64,000 nt of DNA from positions 64,001 through 128,000 of the IMG/VR virus record IMGVR_UViG_3300014204_000122. One strand, written 5' to 3'. Positions 14,491-64,000 of this stretch are shown here, piece by piece. The position numbers and the translations under genes are program-made. The DNA comes from a virus (lineage: Duplodnaviria; Caudoviricetes). Within the stretch, counting starts at the first letter, position 1; each line of letters begins with the position of its first letter. The notes below the pieces were generated by a model. That model saw only the letters and a program-made list of their open reading frames with translations, searched no databases and was not told the origin of the DNA.

Positions 14491-14527
14491 AAAAAAAAAT
14501 CTCAATCAAATTACTGATTGAGATTTT
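14491..14527 (-). terminator. attenuator terminator of tRNA array 1
   Basis: AAAATCTCAATCAG-TAAT-TTGATTGAGATTTTTTTTT on the minus strand. Confidence 0.85.
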
Positions 14528-14559
14528 CTATTAAAATATGAAATATTAACGTAAAACTT

Positions 14560-14649
14560 TTAAATTTTAATATTCAATTTTAAACATGACTCAATCAGGC
14601 TGCTTCTGCGCGGCTGTTGAGGTATTTGTATGTTTAAAATTGCGTTCAT
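14560..14649 (-). CDS. leader peptide 1 (MNAILNIQIPQQPRRSSLIESCLKLNIKI)
   Basis: 29-codon ORF between promoter repeat and terminator; codons 7-14 ATA CAA ATA CCT CAA CAG CCG CGC match array 1 tRNAs. Confidence 0.8.
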   Translation of the reverse strand: MNAILNIQIPQQPRRSSLIESCLKLNIKI

Positions 14650-17743: not shown

Positions 17744-17831
17744 ATATATTTTTAAAATAATATTATAAGCCGTACACTTTTCACAGTCGCTATGGGTTTC
17801 AACCATTTAGTACTTATAATATTATTTAAAG

Positions 17832-17936: not shown

Positions 17937-17948
17937 ATTTCAATGAAC
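17937..17948 (-). promoter_or_regulatory. boxA-like antitermination element
   Basis: GTTCATTGAAAT between the terminator and the first tRNA. Confidence 0.55.
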
Positions 17949-17959
17949 TATATACAAAC

Positions 17960-18000
17960 AAAAAAAACCCTTGATCAATTTATTTAGATCAAGGGTTTTT
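17960..18000 (-). terminator. attenuator terminator of tRNA array 2
   Basis: AAAAACCCTTGATC-10nt-GATCAAGGGTTTTTTTT. Confidence 0.88.
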
Positions 18001-18026
18001 AATATTAACTTTTAAAATTATAGAAA

Positions 18027-18119
18027 TTATCTTTTCGTTAAATCATACCTTGATCCACATCTGCTACTTGATAACAGGTGTAAATGCGATAACAACGATA
18101 TGATAACTATTTTTTTCAT
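18027..18119 (-). CDS. leader peptide 2 (MKKIVIISLLSHLHLLSSSRCGSRYDLTKR)
   Basis: 30-codon ORF; codons 8-19 are exclusively Ser/Leu/His, matching array 2. Confidence 0.82.
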   Translation of the reverse strand: MKKIVIISLLSHLHLLSSSRCGSRYDLTKR

Positions 18120-52374: not shown

Positions 52375-54051
52375 ATGAGACAATTACAAGAAAACACTGA
52401 AAAATATAATTTAGGCCGTATTCTTGACCGTTCAGAAACTACACGTATTACAGAAGTAGTTTCAGCATGGAAAAAATCGGGTTATTTATATGGTCTTAAA
52501 GGTAGAGACCTAGGTAAAATGGCTATTTTAGCTGAAAATCAAAAAAAACAAATTTTACAAGAAAATAACACTACTGCAGATATGGCAGTATTTGACACAA
52601 TCGCAATTCCTATGATTCGTCGTCAAAATGCATTAATGGTAACTCCTAATTTAATTAGTGTTCAACCATTATCATATCCAAACGGTATTGTTTTCTATTT
52701 AGACTATGAAGTGTCTAACGAAAAAGTATCTGTTGGTACAGCAAAAACATGGGAAGGTAAATCAGGATATGATCGTTTTTACGATAATGCTGGTTATGAT
52801 ACTTCTAAAGGACGTATTATTGCACGTGGTTATCCTACATATGCTGGCCCTATTGCTCCTATTGATGCTGCTTTAGCTGCAGAATTTCAAGTTGCAGGTG
52901 TTGACTTAGGTGCCGGTGCTGATCTTAATCTTGCAATTGTAGAACTTGATGGTGCTGCAGTTGGTGGATTTGCAATGAATAACTTAGCTTCTTTAAGAGT
53001 ATTTGCTCATAATGGTATTAAAGAATTAGTAGAAGGTGTAGATTATTTTATTCAAAAAACAATACAAGATTGGGGAACTGATTTATTATCTAAAAATCGT
53101 GTTGCAGGTGTAACAGCTTCAGGTAACGCAGGTGGACAAAATCAACCGCCAGCAAATACAGGTGGTGGAATACAAGGTCCAGGTGCAGGTGATAATATTG
53201 TTGAAGTAAAAATTATTCCTACAGTAGCTGGTTTAGGTGCAAACGTAACAGTTCGTTTTGGATTTAACGATTATGCTAACTTAGAATTAGAACCACAAAA
53301 CAGTACAGAATTACGTATGAAAATTACTTCTGCTCCTGTTCAAACTCATATTCATAAGTTAAAAACAGCTTGGACTATTGAATTAGCTCAAGACTTAATG
53401 GCTTACCACGCAATTGATGCTGAAGCTGAATTAACTCAGTTAATGTCAGAAGAAGTAGCTCAAGAAAAAGACCGTATGATCATTAAAGAATTAGTATATG
53501 GTGCAGCTCACTTTGAAGTGTGGAATGCAGATTTTGCTACTGCTGTTGATCCTAATCCTGCTAATACAGTATTCCGTGGTACAGAAGGAACATACAATCA
53601 AACATTAGTTTATGCCGTTAACAGAATCAATGGTAAAATCCAAAAATCAACTCGTAGAGGTGGTGCTAACTGGATTCTTATCTCTGCTGAAGGTGCAGCT
53701 AAATTAGAAAACTTAGATACTTATAAACCAATTGAAGGTGATGCAGAAGGAACAAAATTTGCTGCAGGTGTTGAAAAAATGGGTAAATTATCTAAAAAAT
53801 GGGATGTGTTTGTTGATCCAATGTTACCAGCTGAAGTTTGTTTAGTAGGTCGTAAAGGTACTTCTTTCTTTGATACAGGATTCGTTTATTGTCCATATAT
53901 TGAATATATACTATCTCCAGTTGTTATTGATCCAGAGACTTTCAACCCTCGTAGACAATTAGCTTCTAGATTCGGAACAAAAATGTTAAATAATAAATTC
54001 TATGGTATTGTTCATATGAAAGGAATTGAAAAATTCGAGATATTTGACTAA
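52375..54051 (+). CDS. major capsid protein (T4 gp23-like)
   Basis: AILAENQ, LISVQPL, KLKTAWTIELAQDL.AYH.IDAEAEL, G.VYCPYI, FNPR; strongly biased codon usage. Confidence 0.95.
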   Translation: MRQLQENTEKYNLGRILDRSETTRITEVVSAWKKSGYLYGLKGRDLGKMAILAENQKKQILQENNTTADMAVFDTIAIPMIRRQNALMVTPNLISVQPLSYPNGIVFYLDYEVSNEKVSVGTAKTWEGKSGYDRFYDNAGYDTSKGRIIARGYPTYAGPIAPIDAALAAEFQVAGVDLGAGADLNLAIVELDGAAVGGFAMNNLASLRVFAHNGIKELVEGVDYFIQKTIQDWGTDLLSKNRVAGVTASGNAGGQNQPPANTGGGIQGPGAGDNIVEVKIIPTVAGLGANVTVRFGFNDYANLELEPQNSTELRMKITSAPVQTHIHKLKTAWTIELAQDLMAYHAIDAEAELTQLMSEEVAQEKDRMIIKELVYGAAHFEVWNADFATAVDPNPANTVFRGTEGTYNQTLVYAVNRINGKIQKSTRRGGANWILISAEGAAKLENLDTYKPIEGDAEGTKFAAGVEKMGKLSKKWDVFVDPMLPAEVCLVGRKGTSFFDTGFVYCPYIEYILSPVVIDPETFNPRRQLASRFGTKMLNNKFYGIVHMKGIEKFEIFD

Positions 54052-54169: not shown

Positions 54170-55513
54170 ATGAGGGAAGAAATCCAAAATATTTTAGATA
54201 AAGATAAACTATATAATTTAACGAGAAAAAATTATTTAGAAAAAAACTATAAAACAATTTATGATAATTTATATATGTTTAAAAATATATATTATTTTAA
54301 TATAGAATTACCCTTTGCCCAATTAGTTTATCTTTATTCTTACGATTTAAAAGAATTACCTGTTTGCTTAAAGTGTAATAGTAATAAGCTTACTTTTGTA
54401 TCTTTTTCGCAAGGATATAAAAAATATTGCTCTAAAAAATGCTCAAACAATCACCAAGAAAGAATAGATAAGCGTAACCAAACTATTTTAAAAAAATATG
54501 GCGTTAAAAACATATCTCAATCTGAAATAATAAAAGAGAAAAAGAGAAAAAATTCTATAGAAAAACATGGAGTAGATAGTCCGTTAAAATTAAAAGAAAT
54601 AAGGGATAAATGTGAAGCAACTTGTGTTCTAAAATATGGAGATTATAATGTTTCTAAAGTAAAAGAATTATATAATAAGCAACGAATTAAATATCAAAAA
54701 ACATTAAAAGATAAATATGGAGTAGATCACATTTCTAAAGTAAAGAGTGTACAAGAAAGTAAAGAAAAAACATATTTAAAAAATTGGGGTGTTAAAAATC
54801 CCTTTTTATCCAAAATTATACAAGATAAAAAAAATAATACAATTCAAGAAAGATATGGAGTTAATAATGTTGGAAAATTATTAGCAACTATAGATAAAAG
54901 AGAAAAAACATATTTAGAAAAGTATGGGGTTAAAAACCCTATGTTGTTATACAAACCGGTTAAAACTTCTAAAATAGAAACAAAAATTTGCAAATTAATA
55001 AATGGAGAAAAATTTAGATTTCAAGGACGTGAATATGACATTAAGGTAGGAAAAGATATATTTGAGATAGATGGAGATTATTTTCATCCAAAAGAAAAGA
55101 AAAACTTAGGTATAATGCAAATGGGTGGATTGATAAATGATTATAGAAAATATAATGCTATTGTAGGTTCTGAATATAATATTTATAAAATATATACTTC
55201 TAATCTACCAAAAAATTTAGAAGGGTTAACAATTGATTTGCTTAAACAACTAAGTTATGAACCCAATTATCAAATAAACTATGAAGATGTTTTGATATCC
55301 AGTGATTACTTAAAAAAATACGTTAAAGAAAAAGGAGAAAATAAGTTATTTAAATATGTGTTTAAACAATTAGTTGATATTTGTATAGAAATAGGAAAAT
55401 TAAATTTGACAAAAGAAGAAATAGAAGAAAGAGTAAGATATATTTTGTTGAACAAGTTAGATTTTAGTTTCAACAATATTTTAAATAATTCTTATTTTAA
55501 AATAAATAAATAA
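54170..55513 (+). CDS. homing-endonuclease-like protein with KYGV repeats
   Basis: C-x2-C..YCSKKC Zn motif, about seven KYGVxN repeats, FEIDGDYFH Vsr-like nuclease motif. Confidence 0.7.
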   Translation: MREEIQNILDKDKLYNLTRKNYLEKNYKTIYDNLYMFKNIYYFNIELPFAQLVYLYSYDLKELPVCLKCNSNKLTFVSFSQGYKKYCSKKCSNNHQERIDKRNQTILKKYGVKNISQSEIIKEKKRKNSIEKHGVDSPLKLKEIRDKCEATCVLKYGDYNVSKVKELYNKQRIKYQKTLKDKYGVDHISKVKSVQESKEKTYLKNWGVKNPFLSKIIQDKKNNTIQERYGVNNVGKLLATIDKREKTYLEKYGVKNPMLLYKPVKTSKIETKICKLINGEKFRFQGREYDIKVGKDIFEIDGDYFHPKEKKNLGIMQMGGLINDYRKYNAIVGSEYNIYKIYTSNLPKNLEGLTIDLLKQLSYEPNYQINYEDVLISSDYLKKYVKEKGENKLFKYVFKQLVDICIEIGKLNLTKEEIEERVRYILLNKLDFSFNNILNNSYFKINK

Positions 55514-57096: not shown

Positions 57097-58563
57097 ATGA
57101 AATCAGAAAAAGAAAAACAATTGGAAATACAACTACTTACTGAAAAAATTCAAAATATATCTGGAAAAAAGGTTATTTTCAAAGAAGAGTTTAATATAGA
57201 AGAGGAAGACGATTATTATTTAATAACCTCTTTAGAAGATGAAATAGAAACTGAAGCTTTTATAGATAATTCAAAATATATTCAAAATAAATTTCCAAAT
57301 GAAAAAGTTTTAAAAATTGATTGTGTTTATAATAATGATTTTTTTAAAAAATTTATAGGGTTTTTAAAAAAGAATAATATTAAATATAATATTAGAAAGG
57401 CAAGATTAGATAATTTTTGTAGAATCAATATAAATGTAAAAGATTTAAAATCAACAAACATTTTAAAAGAAAACGAAGAGAAAACATATAAAATATCAAA
57501 AACATATAACGATAAAACTAAAGTTATTGAAGATACTTTAGAAGGATTAATCAAATATTTTAGTTATACTTTAGAATCAGGAAAAAGTCATAATAGTTCA
57601 ATAGATAAAAGACCTAAAACAATTAATAGTCTTATAAGTAATTTAAGAAAAGCTTTTGATGAATTAGAAGGAGGTTTTTCTAGAACAAGTATTAGGTTAA
57701 TTAAAGAAAATGTTGAAGTATTAAAAGAAACTATGTCTGCTATCCCTCCTGTTAAAAGTAAAACATCTGATTTAGAGAATTTAAGAGCTGCAATTATAGC
57801 AGAATATGATGCTATTAATTTATATGATCAAATGGCTAATAATACAAAAAATAGTAAAATTAAAGAAGTTTTGTTAGATATAGCTAAAGAAGAAAAAACT
57901 CATGTAGGTGAATTAGAAGCACTTTTAAAAGACTTTGACAAACAACATGCAGAAGAAGTCGTTTCAGGAGAAAAAGAGGTTAAAAAAGCTTTAAAAGAAG
58001 AAAAAACAACAGTTTTAAAAGAAGCTATTAATCCTAGCAGTTGGAATATGACTAATGTGGCAAATAAAGTAGAAAGTTATGCAAATGAAAAAAATATACC
58101 TTTTGCTAAATTTAAAATTGAAAGAAAACCTTATGGGTATGGAGCTACTAGAACTACAGCTAAATTAAAAATAGGTTCAAATATAATTCTTATGAAAGTA
58201 GATAAAGTACCTGGAATGGGCAATAACGCAAATGACCTTGAGGTATATATGATAGATCCACAAGATGAATCTAAAGGTATAAAAATCAGCAACTGGTGTT
58301 ATTTATCAGATATTCCAAAATTTTTAGATAAATGGTTTGAATCATCTCAAGTTAGTTCTGATATTAAAACAATGTCTAAAGAAGAGGTTGAAAAATTAAA
58401 ATCAGATTTAAAAAAGGCAAGAATTGAAAATAATGAAGAAATAAGTGATGATCAAGCTTTTGATATAGCAGAAAATATTATAAATGAAAATCCGGGTTTA
58501 AAGGAATATTTAACTAGTATAGGAATTAAAGATATACAAGGCTATATAGCTAATTGGATATAA
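57097..58563 (+). CDS. tagged multi-module protein with a ferritin-like domain
   Basis: N-terminal tag; LRAAIIAEYDAINLYDQMA..DIAKEEKTHVGEL; modules separated by LKE/IKE. Confidence 0.75.
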   Translation: MKSEKEKQLEIQLLTEKIQNISGKKVIFKEEFNIEEEDDYYLITSLEDEIETEAFIDNSKYIQNKFPNEKVLKIDCVYNNDFFKKFIGFLKKNNIKYNIRKARLDNFCRININVKDLKSTNILKENEEKTYKISKTYNDKTKVIEDTLEGLIKYFSYTLESGKSHNSSIDKRPKTINSLISNLRKAFDELEGGFSRTSIRLIKENVEVLKETMSAIPPVKSKTSDLENLRAAIIAEYDAINLYDQMANNTKNSKIKEVLLDIAKEEKTHVGELEALLKDFDKQHAEEVVSGEKEVKKALKEEKTTVLKEAINPSSWNMTNVANKVESYANEKNIPFAKFKIERKPYGYGATRTTAKLKIGSNIILMKVDKVPGMGNNANDLEVYMIDPQDESKGIKISNWCYLSDIPKFLDKWFESSQVSSDIKTMSKEEVEKLKSDLKKARIENNEEISDDQAFDIAENIINENPGLKEYLTSIGIKDIQGYIANWI

Positions 58564-58627
58564 AAAAATAAACATTGATAATCAATGAATTATAAATTAT
58601 TTTAAATTATTTTAAGAAAAAGGTTGT

Positions 58628-58741
58628 TTTGTATTAGAAAAAACCATTATCTTTAGCATAACAAATTAAGAGAAATAATACACTTTTGTAAAAATTTTTC
58701 TTATATTAATAATGAAAAATAAAAAATAGTTATATTTAAAA
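58628..58741 (+). promoter_or_regulatory. composite promoter block of tRNA array 3
   Basis: TTTGTATTA..TATCTTTAG, TTCTTATATTAATAAT and TATATTTAAA in the same order as for arrays 1 and 2. Confidence 0.65.
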
Positions 58742-58760
58742 GAAACAATAAATAAAAAAA

Positions 58761-58847
58761 ATGAAAAAGTGGTATACATATAGAACAATTATGACAGCCT
58801 TTAATAAAGGGGTAGAGGATTGTGGTGTACTCGATATTCGGATTTAA
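58761..58847 (+). CDS. leader peptide 3 (MKKWYTYRTIMTAFNKGVEDCGVLDIRI)
   Basis: 28-codon ORF; the first 21 codons contain exactly the 15 amino acids served by array 3. Confidence 0.85.
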   Translation: MKKWYTYRTIMTAFNKGVEDCGVLDIRI

Positions 58848-58872
58848 ACATTAATAAAGTAATTAAATATTT

Positions 58873-58906
58873 AAACCCGAATCAGTAAAAAGTTTCGGGT
58901 TTTTTT
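58873..58906 (+). terminator. attenuator terminator of tRNA array 3
   Basis: AAACCCGAA-12nt-TTCGGGTTTTTTT. Confidence 0.85.
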
Positions 58907-58929
58907 ATCCGGAAAAAAAAATAAAAAAA

Positions 58930-58941
58930 GTTCTTTGACAT
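58930..58941 (+). promoter_or_regulatory. boxA-like antitermination element
   Basis: GTTCTTTGACAT between the terminator and the first tRNA-like RNA. Confidence 0.6.
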
Positions 58942-58957
58942 ATTGGTATAAAAAAAT

Positions 58958-59046
58958 GGTTCTGTGGTGAAAGTATCACAAGGCAGTCGATTCACAACAG
59001 TGAGGTATCTTCAGTCGTGTTACAGGTTCATATCCTGTCAGAACCA
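58958..59046 (+). ncRNA. tRNA-like RNA without a canonical anticodon arm
   Basis: Acceptor GGTTCTG/CAGAACC-A, D arm GTGA-AAGTA-TCAC, T arm ACAGG-TTCATAT-CCTGT; about 40-nt irregular middle. Confidence 0.6.
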
Positions 59047-59055
59047 CATAATATT

Positions 59056-59136
59056 GGATCAGTTGAGCAATTGGTTGGCTCGCCTGACTGTAGATCAGGT
59101 CTGAAAGGCGTGGGGGTTCGAATCCCTCCTGATCCA
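59056..59136 (+). tRNA. tRNA-Tyr(GUA)
   Basis: CCTGA-CTGTAGA-TCAGG. Confidence 0.92.
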
Positions 59137-59152
59137 CATGATATTTTTCACT

Positions 59153-59390
59153 AGGTTTTGTTAATCTGACAAAATAATAAACCTTTAAACATATTAAATA
59201 AAAAGTCAGAATAGTTTAATATGGGTTTTAAGACGGTTTAAGCGCCGATAAATTATTCATTCAGTGGAAAGTAAAGTTTAGTTGTGTAGCATTGTAATTA
59301 TTTATAATGAATTAAATTTTATGGACTCCGAGATGATCATATATATAGAAAGGTATATAATTTTACAAGTAGAAGGCTTGTTATTAAAAC
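59153..59390 (+). ncRNA. candidate structured RNA within the tRNA array
   Basis: Several hairpins; complementary loops TCTGAC/GTCAGA. Confidence 0.4.
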
Positions 59391-59410
59391 TTATTTTTTT
59401 TAAGAAATAT

Positions 59411-59486
59411 TCCTCTGTAGCTATTAATTGGTTAGAGCGATAAATTGTTAATTTGGGGGTTGTTGGTTCGAGTCCAACTGGAGGAG
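59411..59486 (+). tRNA. tRNA-Asn(GUU)
   Basis: TCCTCTG/TGGAGGA-G; loop TTGTTAA; weak anticodon stem. Confidence 0.85.
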
Positions 59487-59497
59487 CAAAATAAAAT

Positions 59498-59570
59498 GGA
59501 TGAGTGGCGTAATTGGTAGCGCAATTGACTGTTAATCAATAGGTTATGGGATCGTACCCCATCTCATCCG
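59498..59570 (+). tRNA. tRNA-Asn(GUU)
   Basis: ATTGA-CTGTTAA-TCAAT; T loop ATCGTAC. Confidence 0.88.
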
Positions 59571-59582
59571 CAAACAAAAAAT

Positions 59583-59657
59583 GCCTTGATAGCGCAGGTG
59601 GTCAGTTCGCGCTGGACTGAAAATCCAGAGATAGTGGTTCAACTCCACTTCAGGGCA
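59583..59657 (+). tRNA. tRNA-Phe(GAA)
   Basis: CTGGA-CTGAAAA-TCCAG. Confidence 0.92.
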
Positions 59658-59670
59658 CATAAAATAAAAC

Positions 59671-59755
59671 GCACGAATAGCACGTAACTGGAAGCGTCCT
59701 TCTCTTCTAAAGAAGTGACTTTATGTTCTTGAAGGTTCGAATCCTTCTTCGTGTA
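59671..59755 (+). tRNA. tRNA-Arg(UCU) with long variable region
   Basis: CTTCT-CTTCTAA-AGAAG; 15-nt V region. Confidence 0.85.
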
Positions 59756-59782
59756 CAATTAAAATAATAGTTATTATAAAAT

Positions 59783-59853
59783 AGATCTATGGTGTAGTGG
59801 TAACATTTTGAGCTCCAACCTCAACGTCCTGCGTTCGAATCGTAGTGGGTCTG
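59783..59853 (+). tRNA. tRNA-Trp(CCA)
   Basis: TTGAG-CTCCAAC-CTCAA; G73. Confidence 0.9.
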
Positions 59854-59871
59854 CAAAAAAATAAAACATAT

Positions 59872-59956
59872 GTCACGTTCGACTAGCGGTCCAGGTCGCC
59901 AGGTTTTCATCCTGGTTAGAGAAATCTTAACATCGGTTCAAATCCGATACGTGATA
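59872..59956 (+). tRNA. tRNA-Glu(UUC) with long variable arm
   Basis: CCAGG-TTTTCAT-CCTGG; V arm containing AGA-GAAA-TCT. Confidence 0.85.
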
Positions 59957-59980
59957 CTGTAGATAAAATAAATAAAATAA

Positions 59981-60052
59981 CACCCGTTCGACAAGTGGTT
60001 AAGTCGTCAGGTTTTCAACCTGGAGTCACGAGTTCAAATCTCGTACGGGTGA
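59981..60052 (+). tRNA. tRNA-Glu(UUC)
   Basis: TCAGG-TTTTCAA-CCTGG. Confidence 0.9.
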
Positions 60053-60058
60053 CTAAAT

Positions 60059-60130
60059 AGTTCGGTGGTACAATGGTGGTATAACTCGTTGTCTGCGAGA
60101 TGGTTAGGGGTTCAAGTCCCCTCCGAACTG
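60059..60130 (+). tRNA. tRNA-Asp(GUC)
   Basis: CTCG-TTGTCTG-CGAG; G73. Confidence 0.85.
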
Positions 60131-60255
60131 CAATAAATTAAATAAATAAATAAAAATTAAATTATAAGTAAAATGAAAAAACAAATTAAGCAAGTCAAAC
60201 TTTAGAACAACACCTCTATCAAGGATACGTGTTGTAAAAATTAAAAAATTACAAT

Positions 60256-60328
60256 GCGTTCGTAGCTCAATTGGTGGAGCACTCGACTTTTGATCGAGGG
60301 GCTGTGAGTTCAATTCTCACCGGACGTA
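60256..60328 (+). tRNA. tRNA-Lys(UUU), G37
   Basis: CTCGA-CTTTTGA-TCGAG. Confidence 0.88.
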
Positions 60329-60335
60329 CAAGTAT

Positions 60336-60427
60336 GCGTTTGTTCGCTTAGCCCGGTCGAAAGCACCACTCTTTTAAAGTGGATAGTTATTATAACTACA
60401 TCGTAGGTTCAAATCCTACCAGACGTA
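60336..60427 (+). tRNA. tRNA-Lys(UUU) with long variable arm
   Basis: CCACT-CTTTTAA-AGTGG; V arm TAGTTA-TTA-TAACTA. Confidence 0.85.
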
Positions 60428-60438
60428 CTTAATTATAT

Positions 60439-60514
60439 AGAGGTATAGCTCAGCCCGGTTTAGAGCAACTCTTTTACACAGAGAAGGTCGTTGGTTCGAA
60501 TCCAGCTATCTCTA
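60439..60514 (+). tRNA. tRNA-Val(UAC)
   Basis: CTCT-TTTACAC-AGAG. Confidence 0.9.
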
Positions 60515-60527
60515 CAAAAAAATAAAT

Positions 60528-60599
60528 GGTCTATTGGTGTTAATGGTAACATGCTACACTGTCTATGTAGTGCTTTCGGTTCGAATCCGTGATAGACCG
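60528..60599 (+). tRNA. tRNA-Asp(GUC)
   Basis: CTACA-CTGTCTA-TGTAG; G73. Confidence 0.88.
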
Positions 60600-60609
60600 C
60601 ACAATATAT

Positions 60610-60684
60610 TGGAATATAGCTCAGCCCGGTCAGAGCGCGAAACTGATACTTTCGATGTCGGGGGTTCAAATCCCTCTATTCCAA
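60610..60684 (+). tRNA. tRNA-Ile(GAU)
   Basis: CGAAA-CTGATAC-TTTCG. Confidence 0.9.
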
Positions 60685-60762
60685 CATTTTAAAGTAATAA
60701 TTAATTAAAAAAAATAAAAAAATGAAAACAATAATTGGAGGTGACAGCTTGGTCGCGATTTA

Positions 60763-61239
60763 ATGAAAGAACAAAGAATTCAACTTAAAAAGAAACAAAT
60801 TGATAGTAAAAATCATAGAAAGTTACAAAAATATTCTACTAATTTTAATGAAATATTTTCTTTTTTTTTAAAAAGCTATAGAAAAGGAATTTTAACCTTT
60901 TGTGGATCAAACGTTGAAGTAGATTTTGATTATAATGAAGGAAACAGTAAGTTTTGTTTTAGAAAGTATGATAATGGTGAATATAAGTTCCAATCTATTA
61001 AATCTAAACATCCAAATATTTTAAAATCAGTAATTATAGGAAAGAAAAGTTGGGGATTATTTTTACAACAATGGTCAGATGGTATAGTTGATTGGAGTTT
61101 TACAGAAGAAGAAATTTTACAAGAGTTTAAAGATAATAATATAACAATTCCTGAACCTTTGTTAAAAGATTTTCGTAATGTTATTTTAAAAAAGAAAATT
61201 AAAAGAAATGATGAATATTTAAAAAACTGGAGGTTATAA
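60763..61239 (+). CDS. hypothetical protein inside tRNA array 3
   Basis: 158-aa ORF co-oriented with the tRNAs. Confidence 0.65.
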   Translation: MKEQRIQLKKKQIDSKNHRKLQKYSTNFNEIFSFFLKSYRKGILTFCGSNVEVDFDYNEGNSKFCFRKYDNGEYKFQSIKSKHPNILKSVIIGKKSWGLFLQQWSDGIVDWSFTEEEILQEFKDNNITIPEPLLKDFRNVILKKKIKRNDEYLKNWRL

Positions 61240-61437
61240 ATGAAATTAAAAACATTAGAAGAAAAGGAAGATTATTTAAAACAATTAGCAAAAGAAAGAA
61301 ATTATAAAAATCTTAATTTAACATTAAATCCAAATAAAAATATTACAAAAGAAATGATCATAGATGATTTAATATTTTTATTTGAATTAAAAAGAGATAA
61401 GAAAATGAAATTAATTTTTACAACTAAAGGTAAATAA
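61240..61437 (+). CDS. hypothetical protein inside tRNA array 3
   Basis: 65-aa ORF abutting the previous ORF. Confidence 0.55.
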   Translation: MKLKTLEEKEDYLKQLAKERNYKNLNLTLNPNKNITKEMIIDDLIFLFELKRDKKMKLIFTTKGK

Positions 61438-61514
61438 TTTTTAAAGAAGTATTTGTGAACATTAACACAATGGTAGTAAAAATGTTGATTTTCGGTAATA
61501 AGAACCGTTTTTTA

Positions 61515-61588
61515 GGAGAATTAACTCAGCTGACTAGAGTACCTACCTTGCACGTAGGAGGTCATCGGTTTGAATCCGATATTCTCCA
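61515..61588 (+). tRNA. tRNA-Ala(UGC), A3:U70
   Basis: CCTAC-CTTGCAC-GTAGG; acceptor GGAGAAT/ATTCTCC. Confidence 0.85.
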
Positions 61589-61596
61589 CAAATAAT

Positions 61597-61668
61597 GCAA
61601 GAGTAGCTCAGGGATAGAGCGATTGATTACCAATCAATAGGTCGGGATTTTGAAACTCCTCTCTTGCT
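61597..61668 (+). tRNA. tRNA-Gly(ACC)
   Basis: ATTGA-TTACCAA-TCAAT; G1:C72, C2:G71, U73. Confidence 0.82.
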
Positions 61669-61778
61669 CAAATTTTCTCTCCCAAAACAAGATAAATAGG
61701 TAGGAGGTAGGTGTGTTAAATCTTTTAACATAAATTTTAAAGTTTTTCTTTTAATTTATCTTGTTTTTTATTATTTTT

Positions 61779-61851
61779 GCAAAATGTAGCTTAATTGGCT
61801 AAAGCACTTGTCTTCCAAACAGGGGATGCGGATCGTACCCGACATTTTGCT
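61779..61851 (+). tRNA. tRNA-Gly(UCC)
   Basis: CTTGT-CTTCCAA-ACAGG; acceptor GCAAAATG/CATTTTGC; U73. Confidence 0.82.
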
Positions 61852-61886
61852 CATTTAGTTGTAGGATCTATAAAACCTTCATATTT

Positions 61887-61959
61887 GCCGAAATAACACA
61901 ATTGGTAGTGTAGTTGATTTGTAATCAACAGGTTAGGAGTTCAAATCTCCTTTTCGGCT
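61887..61959 (+). tRNA. tRNA-Thr(UGU)
   Basis: GTTGA-TTTGTAA-TCAAC. Confidence 0.92.
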
Positions 61960-61970
61960 CAAAATTATAT

Positions 61971-62053
61971 TGCGGTGTGCCTGAAGTTGGTATCAGTGAG
62001 GTCTCATAAACCTCTGTCGTTTGACCTCGCGGGTTCGAGTCCCGCTGCCGCAA
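61971..62053 (+). tRNA. tRNA-Met(CAU) with long variable arm
   Basis: GAGGT-CTCATAA-ACCTC; V arm GTC-GTTT-GAC; fMet-like acceptor and T arm. Confidence 0.82.
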
Positions 62054-62063
62054 CAAAAAATAT

Positions 62064-62137
62064 GCACATATGCTCGAGTGGTTTATGGGGCTGGTCTGCA
62101 AAACCAGTATTCGATGGTTCAAATCCATCTATGTGCT
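62064..62137 (+). tRNA. tRNA-Cys(GCA)
   Basis: CTGGT-CTGCAAA-ACCAG; U73. Confidence 0.92.
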
Positions 62138-62267
62138 CAAAAATATACCAATATGCTTATTTTTTCTTATTTTATTTAAAAGATGTTTAAAATTTTTGAA
62201 GGTAATAAATAAATTCTTATTTTTAAACTATAAATATAAATGATAGAAAAGAATAAATCAAAAAAAT

Positions 62268-63227
62268 ATGAGTACAAAAAAAACTACCGACTTTGTTATA
62301 CCTAATGAATTAGAATCTATTACTCAAGAAATGTTAATAGAATATTGTTTAACACAACCATTTCCAGGAAGTGCAAAATGGGAATCTCAAAACCCAATAT
62401 GGGATGCATTTTTGCCTGGAAGTATGTCACCTAGAGATGCTTGGTTTGATAGAGATAAAATAACTAAAGCAGTTAAGAATATGTATTGGATAATAGGGAA
62501 AGGCGAAAAAGAAGGTAAATATTATGATTTTAATCAAAAACATAGAGATTCTTTAAAAACTTGTATTGTAGAGAATAATAAAATTACACATGCTGATATT
62601 GGTATATTGTATAAAGTTTTAACTCGATTTACGGTAGCAAAAATTGCTCCTAAAGTTACTGCCTTACGTTATTATAACATGTACAATATTATAAAAGAAT
62701 CTAACATAGATATTTCTTCTGGAGTGTATATGCCAATGGCAGGTTTTGGAGGAATTAAAGAGGCAGCTGAAGTTTGGTATAAAGAAAATAAAATACAAAA
62801 ACAAAAAGATAATTGGGATTATTTAATTGAAACTTATGATATAAACGCTAGTTTTTGCAATTATTATGGTTGGGAAAAGCGTGATATGCTAGCTCAGGTT
62901 ATAGAAACCGATAAAACTTGTTTAGTTTGTCCTCCTTTTGGAAAAAAATATGAACATTGGAAAGGAACTCCTGATGATATGGCAGATATAACATTTATAG
63001 AATGGTATGATTTAATAAAAAAACATGTAAAAGCAAAAAACTATATAATTGTTGGTCCTGAGATTGATTTTACAAATAGTGGTTCAAACAAAGGGGTAGA
63101 CTCTGAAGGAAATAGACGCTGTAGTTTATTCTCTAAAACTGTTGGGATAATGTTGTGGACGGATGAAATGATAGCTTTTTTTAAAAATAATAAAGAAGCT
63201 AGAGTTAAAGCAGGAATTAAAGAATAA
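62268..63227 (+). CDS. putative amino-methyltransferase-like protein
   Basis: VYMPMAGFGG (motif I-like), YDIN, LVCPPF (motif IV-like). Confidence 0.5.
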   Translation: MSTKKTTDFVIPNELESITQEMLIEYCLTQPFPGSAKWESQNPIWDAFLPGSMSPRDAWFDRDKITKAVKNMYWIIGKGEKEGKYYDFNQKHRDSLKTCIVENNKITHADIGILYKVLTRFTVAKIAPKVTALRYYNMYNIIKESNIDISSGVYMPMAGFGGIKEAAEVWYKENKIQKQKDNWDYLIETYDINASFCNYYGWEKRDMLAQVIETDKTCLVCPPFGKKYEHWKGTPDDMADITFIEWYDLIKKHVKAKNYIIVGPEIDFTNSGSNKGVDSEGNRRCSLFSKTVGIMLWTDEMIAFFKNNKEARVKAGIKE

Positions 63228-63275
63228 TACACATAAAAATGTATTACAATATGAAAAAATTTTATAATTGTTTAT

Positions 63276-63339
63276 AGATTTTTATAAGATTTTTATAAGA
63301 TTTTTATAAGATTTTTATAAGATTTTTATAAGATTTTTA
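63276..63339. repeat. 11-bp tandem repeat (AGATTTTTATA) x5.8
   Basis: Read directly in the intergenic gap between convergent genes. Confidence 0.9.
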
Positions 63340-63382
63340 GATCATATATTACCAATATGTAAATTTTTTTTCTTTATTCATT

Positions 63383-63697
63383 TTAATATTTTATATTTAA
63401 AAATTTTGCCACAGTATCAAATTGTTTATAACTCATCCAATCAATCCACAAAATCCAATTATATTTCTCGCTAGGTTTTGTTAAAGGTATAATTTTTTTG
63501 CCATTACTTAAAAAATCAATATTGTTTTCTAATTCTTCTTTAGTAATACCATTCATGAAAATTCGATCTTCTTGAAAATCAAAATCTATTTTTTGCTGAT
63601 TTATATTTTCCCTCAAAATTACTTTCTTACCAGAAATTCTTTCTATTTTTTCGGTAAGTAATTGTATCTCTAATTGTTTTTCTTTTTCTGTTTTCAT
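63383..63697 (-). CDS. tagged putative internal head protein
   Basis: MKTEKEKQLEIQLLTEKIERISGKKVILRE. Confidence 0.75.
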   Translation of the reverse strand: MKTEKEKQLEIQLLTEKIERISGKKVILRENINQQKIDFDFQEDRIFMNGITKEELENNIDFLSNGKKIIPLTKPSEKYNWILWIDWMSYKQFDTVAKFLNIKY

Positions 63698-63712
63698 TAT
63701 TTTTTAAATTTT

Positions 63713-64000
63713 TTATTTAACATTAGAAGATCCGACACGTATAAATTTTCCAACATTATTAGCATCTTTTGTTTTTAGAACTATAGTTGTTTTTTCATCA
63801 CTTTCTAGTTTTGTAATTGTATATTTAGAGGGATATCCGTTATTAGATTTTTCTATAACTTGATATTTTTCTTTAGTATCTTTATTTGTAAAAAGATGAA
63901 CAGCTTTATAACTCCAAGATCCCACATTACGTGTTGTATGACTATCTTCTTGTGTTAAAACAAATCCAGCTTTTTTAAATTCATATTTTAAATTCTCCCA
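63713..64000 (-). CDS. partial hypothetical protein (5' end outside window)
   Basis: Frame stays open from 63925 to the window edge (WENLKYEF..). Confidence 0.6.
   Translation of the reverse strand, partial: WENLKYEFKKAGFVLTQEDSHTTRNVGSWSYKAVHLFTNKDTKEKYQVIEKSNNGYPSKYTITKLESDEKTTIVLKTKDANNVGKFIRVGSSNVK

Follow-up and report, generated by a model that had tools for sequence, protein, structure and literature searches.

A candidate leader-peptide attenuator upstream of a fifteen-amino-acid tRNA array in a bacteriophage

The largest tRNA gene block of a 136.6-kb phage genome (136,569 bp, 26% GC) lies behind a short reading frame whose first codons name the amino acids of the tRNAs that follow, and behind a predicted terminator whose folding would depend on the position of a ribosome on that frame. 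On the strength of the sequence and of a fold model, this element is very probably a ribosome-mediated (leader-peptide) transcription attenuator that gates a tRNA array for 15 amino acids. The sequence holds a short ORF, codons tied to the function of the downstream genes, a predicted intrinsic terminator and an antiterminator dependent on ribosome position, and in relatives the design recurs and the leader covaries with the genes behind it. An earlier note on this DNA, made from the letters alone, had proposed an attenuator whose antiterminator strand would be hidden by a ribosome standing at the stop codon; this reading is supported by composition statistics, by two sister modules, by a ribosome-masking fold model and by the covariation of leaders and arrays in related phages. 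Coordinates are those of the window, the stretch of 64,000 nucleotides that was analysed (positions 64,001 to 128,000 of IMG/VR record IMGVR_UViG_3300014204_000122), unless a relative is named.

The leader reading frame and its tRNA array

Leader ORF 3 (58761-58847, plus strand) extends over 28 codons from an ATG at 58761 to a TAA at 58845-58847. An A-rich stretch lies 5' of the ATG, the same context being found upstream of ten other leaders of the family, and the ORF is presumed to be translated. The amino acids specified by codons 1-21 are M, K, W, Y, T, R, I, A, F, N, G, V, E, D and C; the ORF has no H, P, Q or S at all and its one L is at codon 24, just as the earlier note had read the frame. 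Codons 1-22 (58761-58826) are taken as the sensing zone, on the evidence of the ribosome-mask fold model, the equality of the two amino acid sets and the match of codons to anticodons. This zone holds exactly the 15 amino acids of the 20 assignable downstream tRNAs and none besides, and the identity of the two sets, which had also been claimed from the sequence, was confirmed with ARAGORN and Rfam tRNA calls. The roster as a whole covers codons 1-23, the first non-roster residue being met at codon 24. The description of the leader as ‘one-of-each’ proved only partly apt: it holds for nine of the 15 amino acids and fails for K and T, which occur three times each in the zone, and for Y, M and G, which occur twice each, the other amino acids being single.

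The match extends to individual codons. Twenty of the 21 codons from 2 to 22 are strictly cognate to anticodons of the array, against four of the six beyond the zone, and all 21 are cognate once U34 wobble is allowed, GCC being the one codon that needs four-way U34 wobble. The non-cognate codons of the leader, CTC and CGG, both lie beyond codon 22. Arg is specified by AGA and Ile by ATT, and tRNA-Arg(UCU) and tRNA-Ile(GAU), the tRNAs with which the earlier note had paired them, were both found in the array. Several leader codons are rare in the phage genome: GCC, GGG and GAG (within 58797-58820) make up 6%, 7% and 11% of their families, respectively, and AAG at codon 3 (58767-58769) makes up 9%. 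AAG, GGG and GAG end in G and would be wobble-read by U34 tRNAs of the array, which may heighten the sensitivity of the leader to those tRNAs.

The earlier note had suggested that the probability of such a composition be calculated. With the amino acid usage of the phage's 83 long ORFs, and with codons 2-21 scored, the probability of drawing only members of the set while covering it in full is 3e-6; for the match of the zone to the array, P is put at about 3-5e-6. Leader 3 alone has the exact roster property among the 1074 frames of 21 or more codons that start with ATG in the 136,569-bp genome.

tRNA array 3 (58958-62138, plus strand) comprises 20 assignable tRNAs for 15 amino acids, with a tRNA-like gene at its head and two small ORFs within it. 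ARAGORN identified 18 tRNA genes between 59056 and 62138, and Rfam added three: a second Asn tRNA (59411-59487), a Gly(ACC) tRNA (61597-61668) and the tRNA-like gene (58958-59046). The last of these (34.6 bits in Rfam) has intact acceptor, D and T arms and is without a canonical anticodon arm; in the relative G004 its position is taken by a tRNA of Tyr(GUA) type whose variable arm is long. The tRNA-like gene could be a degenerate tRNA, or else serve as a decoy or in processing. Pro, Arg, Glu, Lys and Met tRNAs, which normally have short variable arms, are 84-97 nt long in this phage (13786-13882, 59671-59756, 59872-59957, 60336-60428 and 61971-62054), a length that suggests insertions or enlarged variable regions. 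The two ORFs, of 158 and 65 amino acids, lie at 60763-61437 between the Ile and Ala tRNAs; neither has a match in Pfam or PHROG, and both would be co-transcribed with the gated array.

Just 5' of the leader cassette is a gene (57097-58563) for a 488-amino-acid protein with a rubrerythrin/ferritin-like domain (Pfam E = 1e-10), an unusual gene to find beside phage head genes. An ORF resembling a homing endonuclease (54170-55513) directly follows the major head protein gene (52375-54051). Among the gene products that can be recognised in the genome are a capsid protein, a portal protein and a homing endonuclease, and a blastn comparison with deposited phage genomes returned tRNA-sized matches only and no close relative.

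The putative terminator switch and the fold model

The 5' strand of the putative antiterminator (region 2, 58836-58852, plus strand) spans the stop codon of leader 3 and the three sense codons before it. It is complementary to a 3' strand (region 3, 58866-58882, plus strand) that holds the 5' arm of the terminator, the pairing being recovered both as an inverted repeat and in the minimum-free-energy fold. Complementarity at 12 of 13 positions had been noted between 58836-58848 and 58870-58882; it is real, and grows to 17 nt at 88% when 58836-52 is set against 58866-82. The predicted intrinsic terminator (58873-58906, plus strand) consists of a perfect 9-bp stem with four G-C pairs (58873-81 with 58894-902), a 12-nt loop and a U-run of seven, with a folding energy of -11.2 kcal/mol. 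A consensus terminator scan reported no terminator in leader 3, since the scan allows loops of up to 8 nt and the actual loop has 12 nt. The inverted repeats of terminator and antiterminator share 58873-58881, and as both structures use this segment they are mutually exclusive. The antiterminator duplex contains one A-C mismatch and, at -9.8 kcal/mol, is weaker than the terminator.

Taken by itself, the leader 3 antiterminator is marginally above dinucleotide shuffles (p = 0.07). Complementarity between the ORF and the terminator arm is found in all 11 leaders of the family, however, with a combined p of 2e-13, and in 11 of 11 the stop codon lies at or just past the antiterminator strand.

The dependence of this switch on ribosome position was modelled with a proxy for co-transcriptional folding. 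The RNA was cut just before the 3' arm of the terminator and a 28-nt ribosome mask was moved along it codon by codon, using equilibrium energies and an assumed footprint from -15 to +12 relative to the A site. With the A site anywhere in codons 1-22 of leader 3, the antiterminator is pre-formed with P of about 0.8; from codon 23 through the stop codon, pairing of the terminator 5' arm falls to 0.3-0.4. In eight other leaders, the limit given by the mask model coincides with the end of the matched codon run. Pooled over the leaders, codons among the last ten of the zone belong to the set of the array in 74 of 86 cases, against 45 of 113 post-zone codons (Fisher p = 2e-11). Strictly cognate codons, pooled over nine leaders, make up 151 of 196 in the zone and 23 of 88 after it (Fisher p = 6e-16). 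One leader (G1_a), whose zone is blurred in the co-transcriptional proxy, was excluded from these pooled counts of cognate codons.

When no ribosome is present in the model, leader 3 forms the antiterminator (P = 0.81), while leaders 1 and 2 of the same genome form a protector hairpin (0.16 and 0.45, respectively). Leader 3 thus behaves in the model as a two-hairpin switch, in which termination would need the timely arrival of a ribosome at the stop codon. As the antiterminator forms without a ribosome, the switch could be leaky. In leader 3 the antiterminator strand is not sequestered ahead of the ribosome, and the leader can therefore also act as a timer that sums the delays at all of its codons; the fold model backs the geometry of such a timer, and the rest of the timer idea is conjecture. 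The leader may respond only weakly to any one tRNA, since most of its sensor codons occur once.

Equilibrium folding of the full-length leader favours the terminator at nearly every ribosome position. This fold, with a masked ribosome, had been tried as a test of stalling and was dropped because it did not tell stall positions apart. Since the terminator wins at equilibrium, read-through would have to rest on kinetic trapping of the antiterminator; classical attenuators likewise depend on a kinetic decision.

Sister modules, relatives and the boxA element

All of the tRNA genes of the genome fall into three arrays, which jointly cover all 20 amino acids. In front of each stand an AT-rich cassette common to all three, then a short ORF and then a terminator. 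The cassette of leader 3 (58620-58720, plus strand) was recognised by alignment as common to the three leaders and presumably provides the promoter and 5'-UTR, including the transcription start. A 16-nt block within it (58698-58713) has zero-mismatch copies at the three leader cassettes only, as found by motif search. Sigma-70-like promoter matches in a consensus scan were no commoner than in shuffled sequence.

Sister attenuator 1 (14497-14649, minus strand) consists of a leader ORF at 14649-14560 and a terminator at 14526-14497. Its leader contains a run of nine consecutive Ile/Gln/Pro/Arg codons, and array 1 is made up of Pro, Gln, Ile(UAU) and Arg(ACG) tRNAs. Sister attenuator 2 (17965-18119, minus strand) has its leader ORF at 18119-18027 and its terminator at 17998-17965; twelve consecutive Ser/Leu/His codons precede an array of Ser, Leu and His tRNAs only. 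Within array 2, the first Ser tRNA and the His-like tRNA are separated by a long non-tRNA element, AT-rich and hairpin-like (17760-17830, minus strand), and the His-like gene itself (17742-17653) has an unusually long extra arm. A strict detector was run on the whole genome with three requirements: a terminator stem free of mismatches, a short ORF close by, and perfect complementarity to the 5' arm over 7 nt or more. It picked out leaders 1 and 2 and nothing else, leader 3 being missed owing to its single mismatch. Across the family the matching reaches the level of isoacceptors: CGC goes with Arg(ACG), AGA with Arg(UCU), ATA with Ile(UAU) and AGY with Ser(GCU).

Relatives were found in IMG/VR through the capsid protein and the protein encoded upstream of the leader. 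The design is shared by four lineages; in G001, G004/G005 and G008 the tRNAs are partitioned differently, and each leader tracks its own array. Capsid identity to the relatives ranges from 83 to 60% where measured, being 83% for G004 and G005, which are counted as one lineage, and 61% for G008. A further metagenome scan added one contig of the G004/G005 lineage and, beyond that, non-syntenic contigs only.

In G001 (135.6 kb; neighbouring protein about 55% identical), the arrays carry Gly/Pro/Ala/Gln/Thr, Leu/Met/Asn/Asp/Glu and Trp/His/Phe/Ile/Lys/Arg/Ser/Val tRNAs, and the leader of each is rich in those residues. The G001 leaders also contain an in-ORF copy of the terminator 3' arm. At another G001 locus (L015; G001:90000-99500), no leader-terminator module goes with the five tRNAs present, which are solitary and scattered (three Met, Leu(UAA) and Cys); the gating therefore concerns arrays and not every tRNA of the family. 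One leader of G008 has fourteen consecutive Pro/Ile/Thr/Val/Glu/Asp/Ala codons followed by that set of tRNAs, while a second, of Gln and Ser, stands before Gln, Gln and Ser(GCU) tRNAs. At the locus L025 (9485-9970), a leader with a Ser/Leu/Gln run and a terminator lies ahead of a tRNA-shaped, Leu-like sequence whose acceptor stem is mismatched; the Gln/Ser leader comes next, giving another tandem arrangement.

The closest relative, G004/G005, has a syntenic array behind two tandem leader-terminator modules (L019, 7489-7910, identical in L018, 13429-13850; the second leader has 53 codons). With Ala and Gly tRNAs recovered from Rfam-only matches, its array differs from array 3 in that Glu is absent and Ser(GCU) is present. 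Neither of its tandem leaders has an E; S occurs in both and is encoded by AGY throughout, and the zone of each comprises exactly the 15 amino acids of that array (P = 8e-6 and 9e-7). If the leader is a roster of its array, this exchange of Glu for Ser in array and leaders alike is the covariation to be expected.

Leader and array match in all ten pairs tested. When the arrays were permuted among nine leaders, the observed summed z was 30.4 against a maximum of 12.0 over 133,496 derangements; the limits of the arrays in the relatives were set by us, an array being followed along its strand until another module or a long gap was reached.

Between the terminator and array 3 lies a 17-nt boxA element (58928-58944, plus strand), recognised by sequence identity. 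The 17-mer is identical in G004, where its flanks differ. Variants follow leader 2 (a boxA-like element near 17947, minus strand) and one of the G001 leaders; in the relatives, the element lies at about 7958-7974 in L019 and at about 2117-2135 in L014. An exact-match scan of prokaryote genomes with the 17-mer returned chiefly Bacteroidota, including Pedobacter, Chitinophaga, Mucilaginibacter and Niabella. Many of the matches come from contigs 5-6 kb long, as long as an rRNA operon, and in four of four loci checked the 17-mer lies between the spacer tRNAs and the 23S rRNA. By its sequence, 58928-58944 is a copy of the host-type boxA of the 16S-23S rRNA spacer. By analogy with rRNA operons, it would bind NusB/NusE and likely keeps polymerase processive over the 3.2 kb of untranslated, structured RNA that follows. 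The phage element is identical to the rRNA-operon element of Pedobacter, Flavihumibacter and Niabella and differs in its setting: it follows a leader-peptide attenuator and precedes an array of tRNAs only. The boxA, the A-rich starts free of Shine-Dalgarno sequences and the TTTG/TAnnTTTG-like promoter motifs in relatives together suggest a host among the Bacteroidota.

The interval of about 50 nt between the terminator and the first tRNA contains a TTGACA, and might be taken to hold a separate promoter for the array. The TTGACA falls inside the 17-mer identical to the rRNA spacer boxA, however, and no -10 box comes after it. In several relatives the first tRNA begins 10-25 nt past the U-run, which leaves no room for a promoter.

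Proposed mechanism, alternatives and meaning

In the proposed mechanism, transcription would begin in the shared upstream cassette, and a ribosome would translate the 28-codon leader behind the advancing RNA polymerase; coupling of transcription and translation is assumed for the presumed Bacteroidota host. If decoding is fast, the ribosome would reach codons 23-28 and the stop codon and cover 58836-58852, the hairpin 58873-58902 would form, and polymerase would stop at the U-run. If the ribosome is delayed within codons 1-22, 58836-58852 would pair with 58866-82 first, the 5' arm of the terminator would be occupied, and polymerase would read through. It would then cross the boxA, probably recruiting host antitermination factors of the rRNA type, and transcribe the untranslated tRNA array. 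As the zone lists all of the amino acids of the array and no others, in codons that its tRNAs can read, a shortage in the decoding of any of them, or a slowdown across the board, would raise the synthesis of that same set of tRNAs. The arrangement would thereby form a demand-driven feedback in which tRNA transcription is matched to decoding speed.

A wider reading extends this to all three attenuators, which would form a closed-loop monitor of the whole decoding capacity of the cell, 20 amino acids being divided among three sensors, each tied to its matching set of tRNAs. The roster leader would be a transit timer, tripped by the depletion or cleavage of any single host tRNA, as through anticodon-nuclease defences or host shut-off induced by the phage, or by a demand from AT-rich late phage mRNAs that exceeds supply; the phage would then replace exactly the missing tRNAs. 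We regard this wider reading as evenly balanced between right and wrong. The earlier note had taken the single sensor codons to indicate a detector of near-total tRNA loss through cleavage. The data do not require this, and a timer of summed delays, whose geometry the fold model backs, could also work.

The same machine might answer to a different signal, namely amino acid starvation or a general drop in translation, the array then being part of a response to translational stress. We consider this unlikely, though it has points in its favour. Stalling alone cannot separate a missing tRNA from an uncharged one, as is established for the trp and his attenuators, and leader 3, with no 1:2 protector hairpin and with mostly single codons, resembles an overall transit timer. 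Extra tRNA gives no relief from amino acid starvation, however, and the tRNAs are sorted into arrays with matching leaders, down to the isoacceptor box, which speaks for each switch being adjusted to the decoding activities under its control. A loop that yields tRNA is better understood as a control of tRNA supply than as a response to amino acid starvation, and the isoacceptor matching supports the former.

An RNA element that acts independently of translation, the ORF being incidental, is very improbable. Such an element might bind tRNA in the manner of a T-box, or serve as a processing or decoy structure; the leader RNA does have alternative structures, and riboswitches that sense tRNA exist. 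Yet an Rfam cmscan of 58000-64000, with E values up to 1, detected neither a T-box (RF00230) nor any other family in the leader region. The signal is also frame-dependent, as rosters and cognate codons run from the ATG to a stop codon near the antiterminator strand in 11 of 11 leaders, and one contact of the specifier type cannot list 15 tRNAs. Least credible is that leader 3 is a plain small gene that has a terminator of its own, or that the leaders are chance ORFs, with separate downstream promoters for the arrays and a coincidental roster: short ORFs and A/T complementarity arise easily at 26% GC and the antiterminator of leader 3 alone is non-significant, but against this stand a composition probability of about 3e-6, ten matching leader/array pairs out of ten with no derangement of nine coming close, and the exact covariation of E and S with the G004 array.

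The leader-peptide attenuator thus preferred has well-known counterparts. The ilvGMEDA, ilvBN, thr, trpL, hisL, leuL and pheL systems each have a translated leader, regulatory codons, a terminator and an antiterminator positioned by the ribosome, and the ilv and thr leaders each sense more than one amino acid. Leader 3 would work on the same principle as these multivalent attenuators. It differs from them in being carried by a phage, presumably of Bacteroidota, and in regulating tRNAs instead of biosynthetic enzymes. Further, it lists 15 amino acids, mostly once, whereas the enterobacterial leaders have tandem runs of one to three; it lacks the 1:2 protector hairpin, such that the untranslated state would be ON; and a boxA follows its terminator.

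A component of the decoding apparatus is already known to be controlled in this manner in E. coli, where the pheST operon, for phenylalanyl-tRNA synthetase, is attenuated through the pheM leader and slow decoding raises decoding capacity. The likeness lies in leader-peptide attenuation acting on the decoding apparatus; the difference is that pheST supplies a synthetase for one amino acid, whereas the phage products are tRNAs for 15. T-box elements also control termination at genes of the translation apparatus, by binding one uncharged tRNA directly and without a ribosome. They share with the phage element transcription termination that answers to the state of tRNA, and differ in that the phage signal is a translated reading frame with no T-box match. 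No description of leader-peptide control of tRNA genes was found in the full-text literature that was searched, in which subscription journals are thinly covered, and a text search on the boxA motif returned nothing relevant.

Phage tRNA genes are usually viewed as constitutive helpers in codon usage or as spares against tRNA-cleaving defences, and to our knowledge little has been established about how their expression is controlled. If tRNA genes are governed by a leader-peptide attenuator, this would be the first instance in which the speed of decoding feeds back on tRNA synthesis, and in the roster leader a single attenuator would poll 15 decoding activities together. The boxA beyond the attenuator suggests that these phages borrow host rRNA antitermination for their tRNA arrays. 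The combination of roster ORF, terminator and tRNA array provides a signature with which metagenomes can be searched, and the element may serve as a compact natural part for sensing translation capacity. For the phages themselves, the arrangement offers a testable model for the timing of tRNA deployment and, if the wider reading is true, would represent a new class of regulated counter-defence and supply control for tRNA genes.
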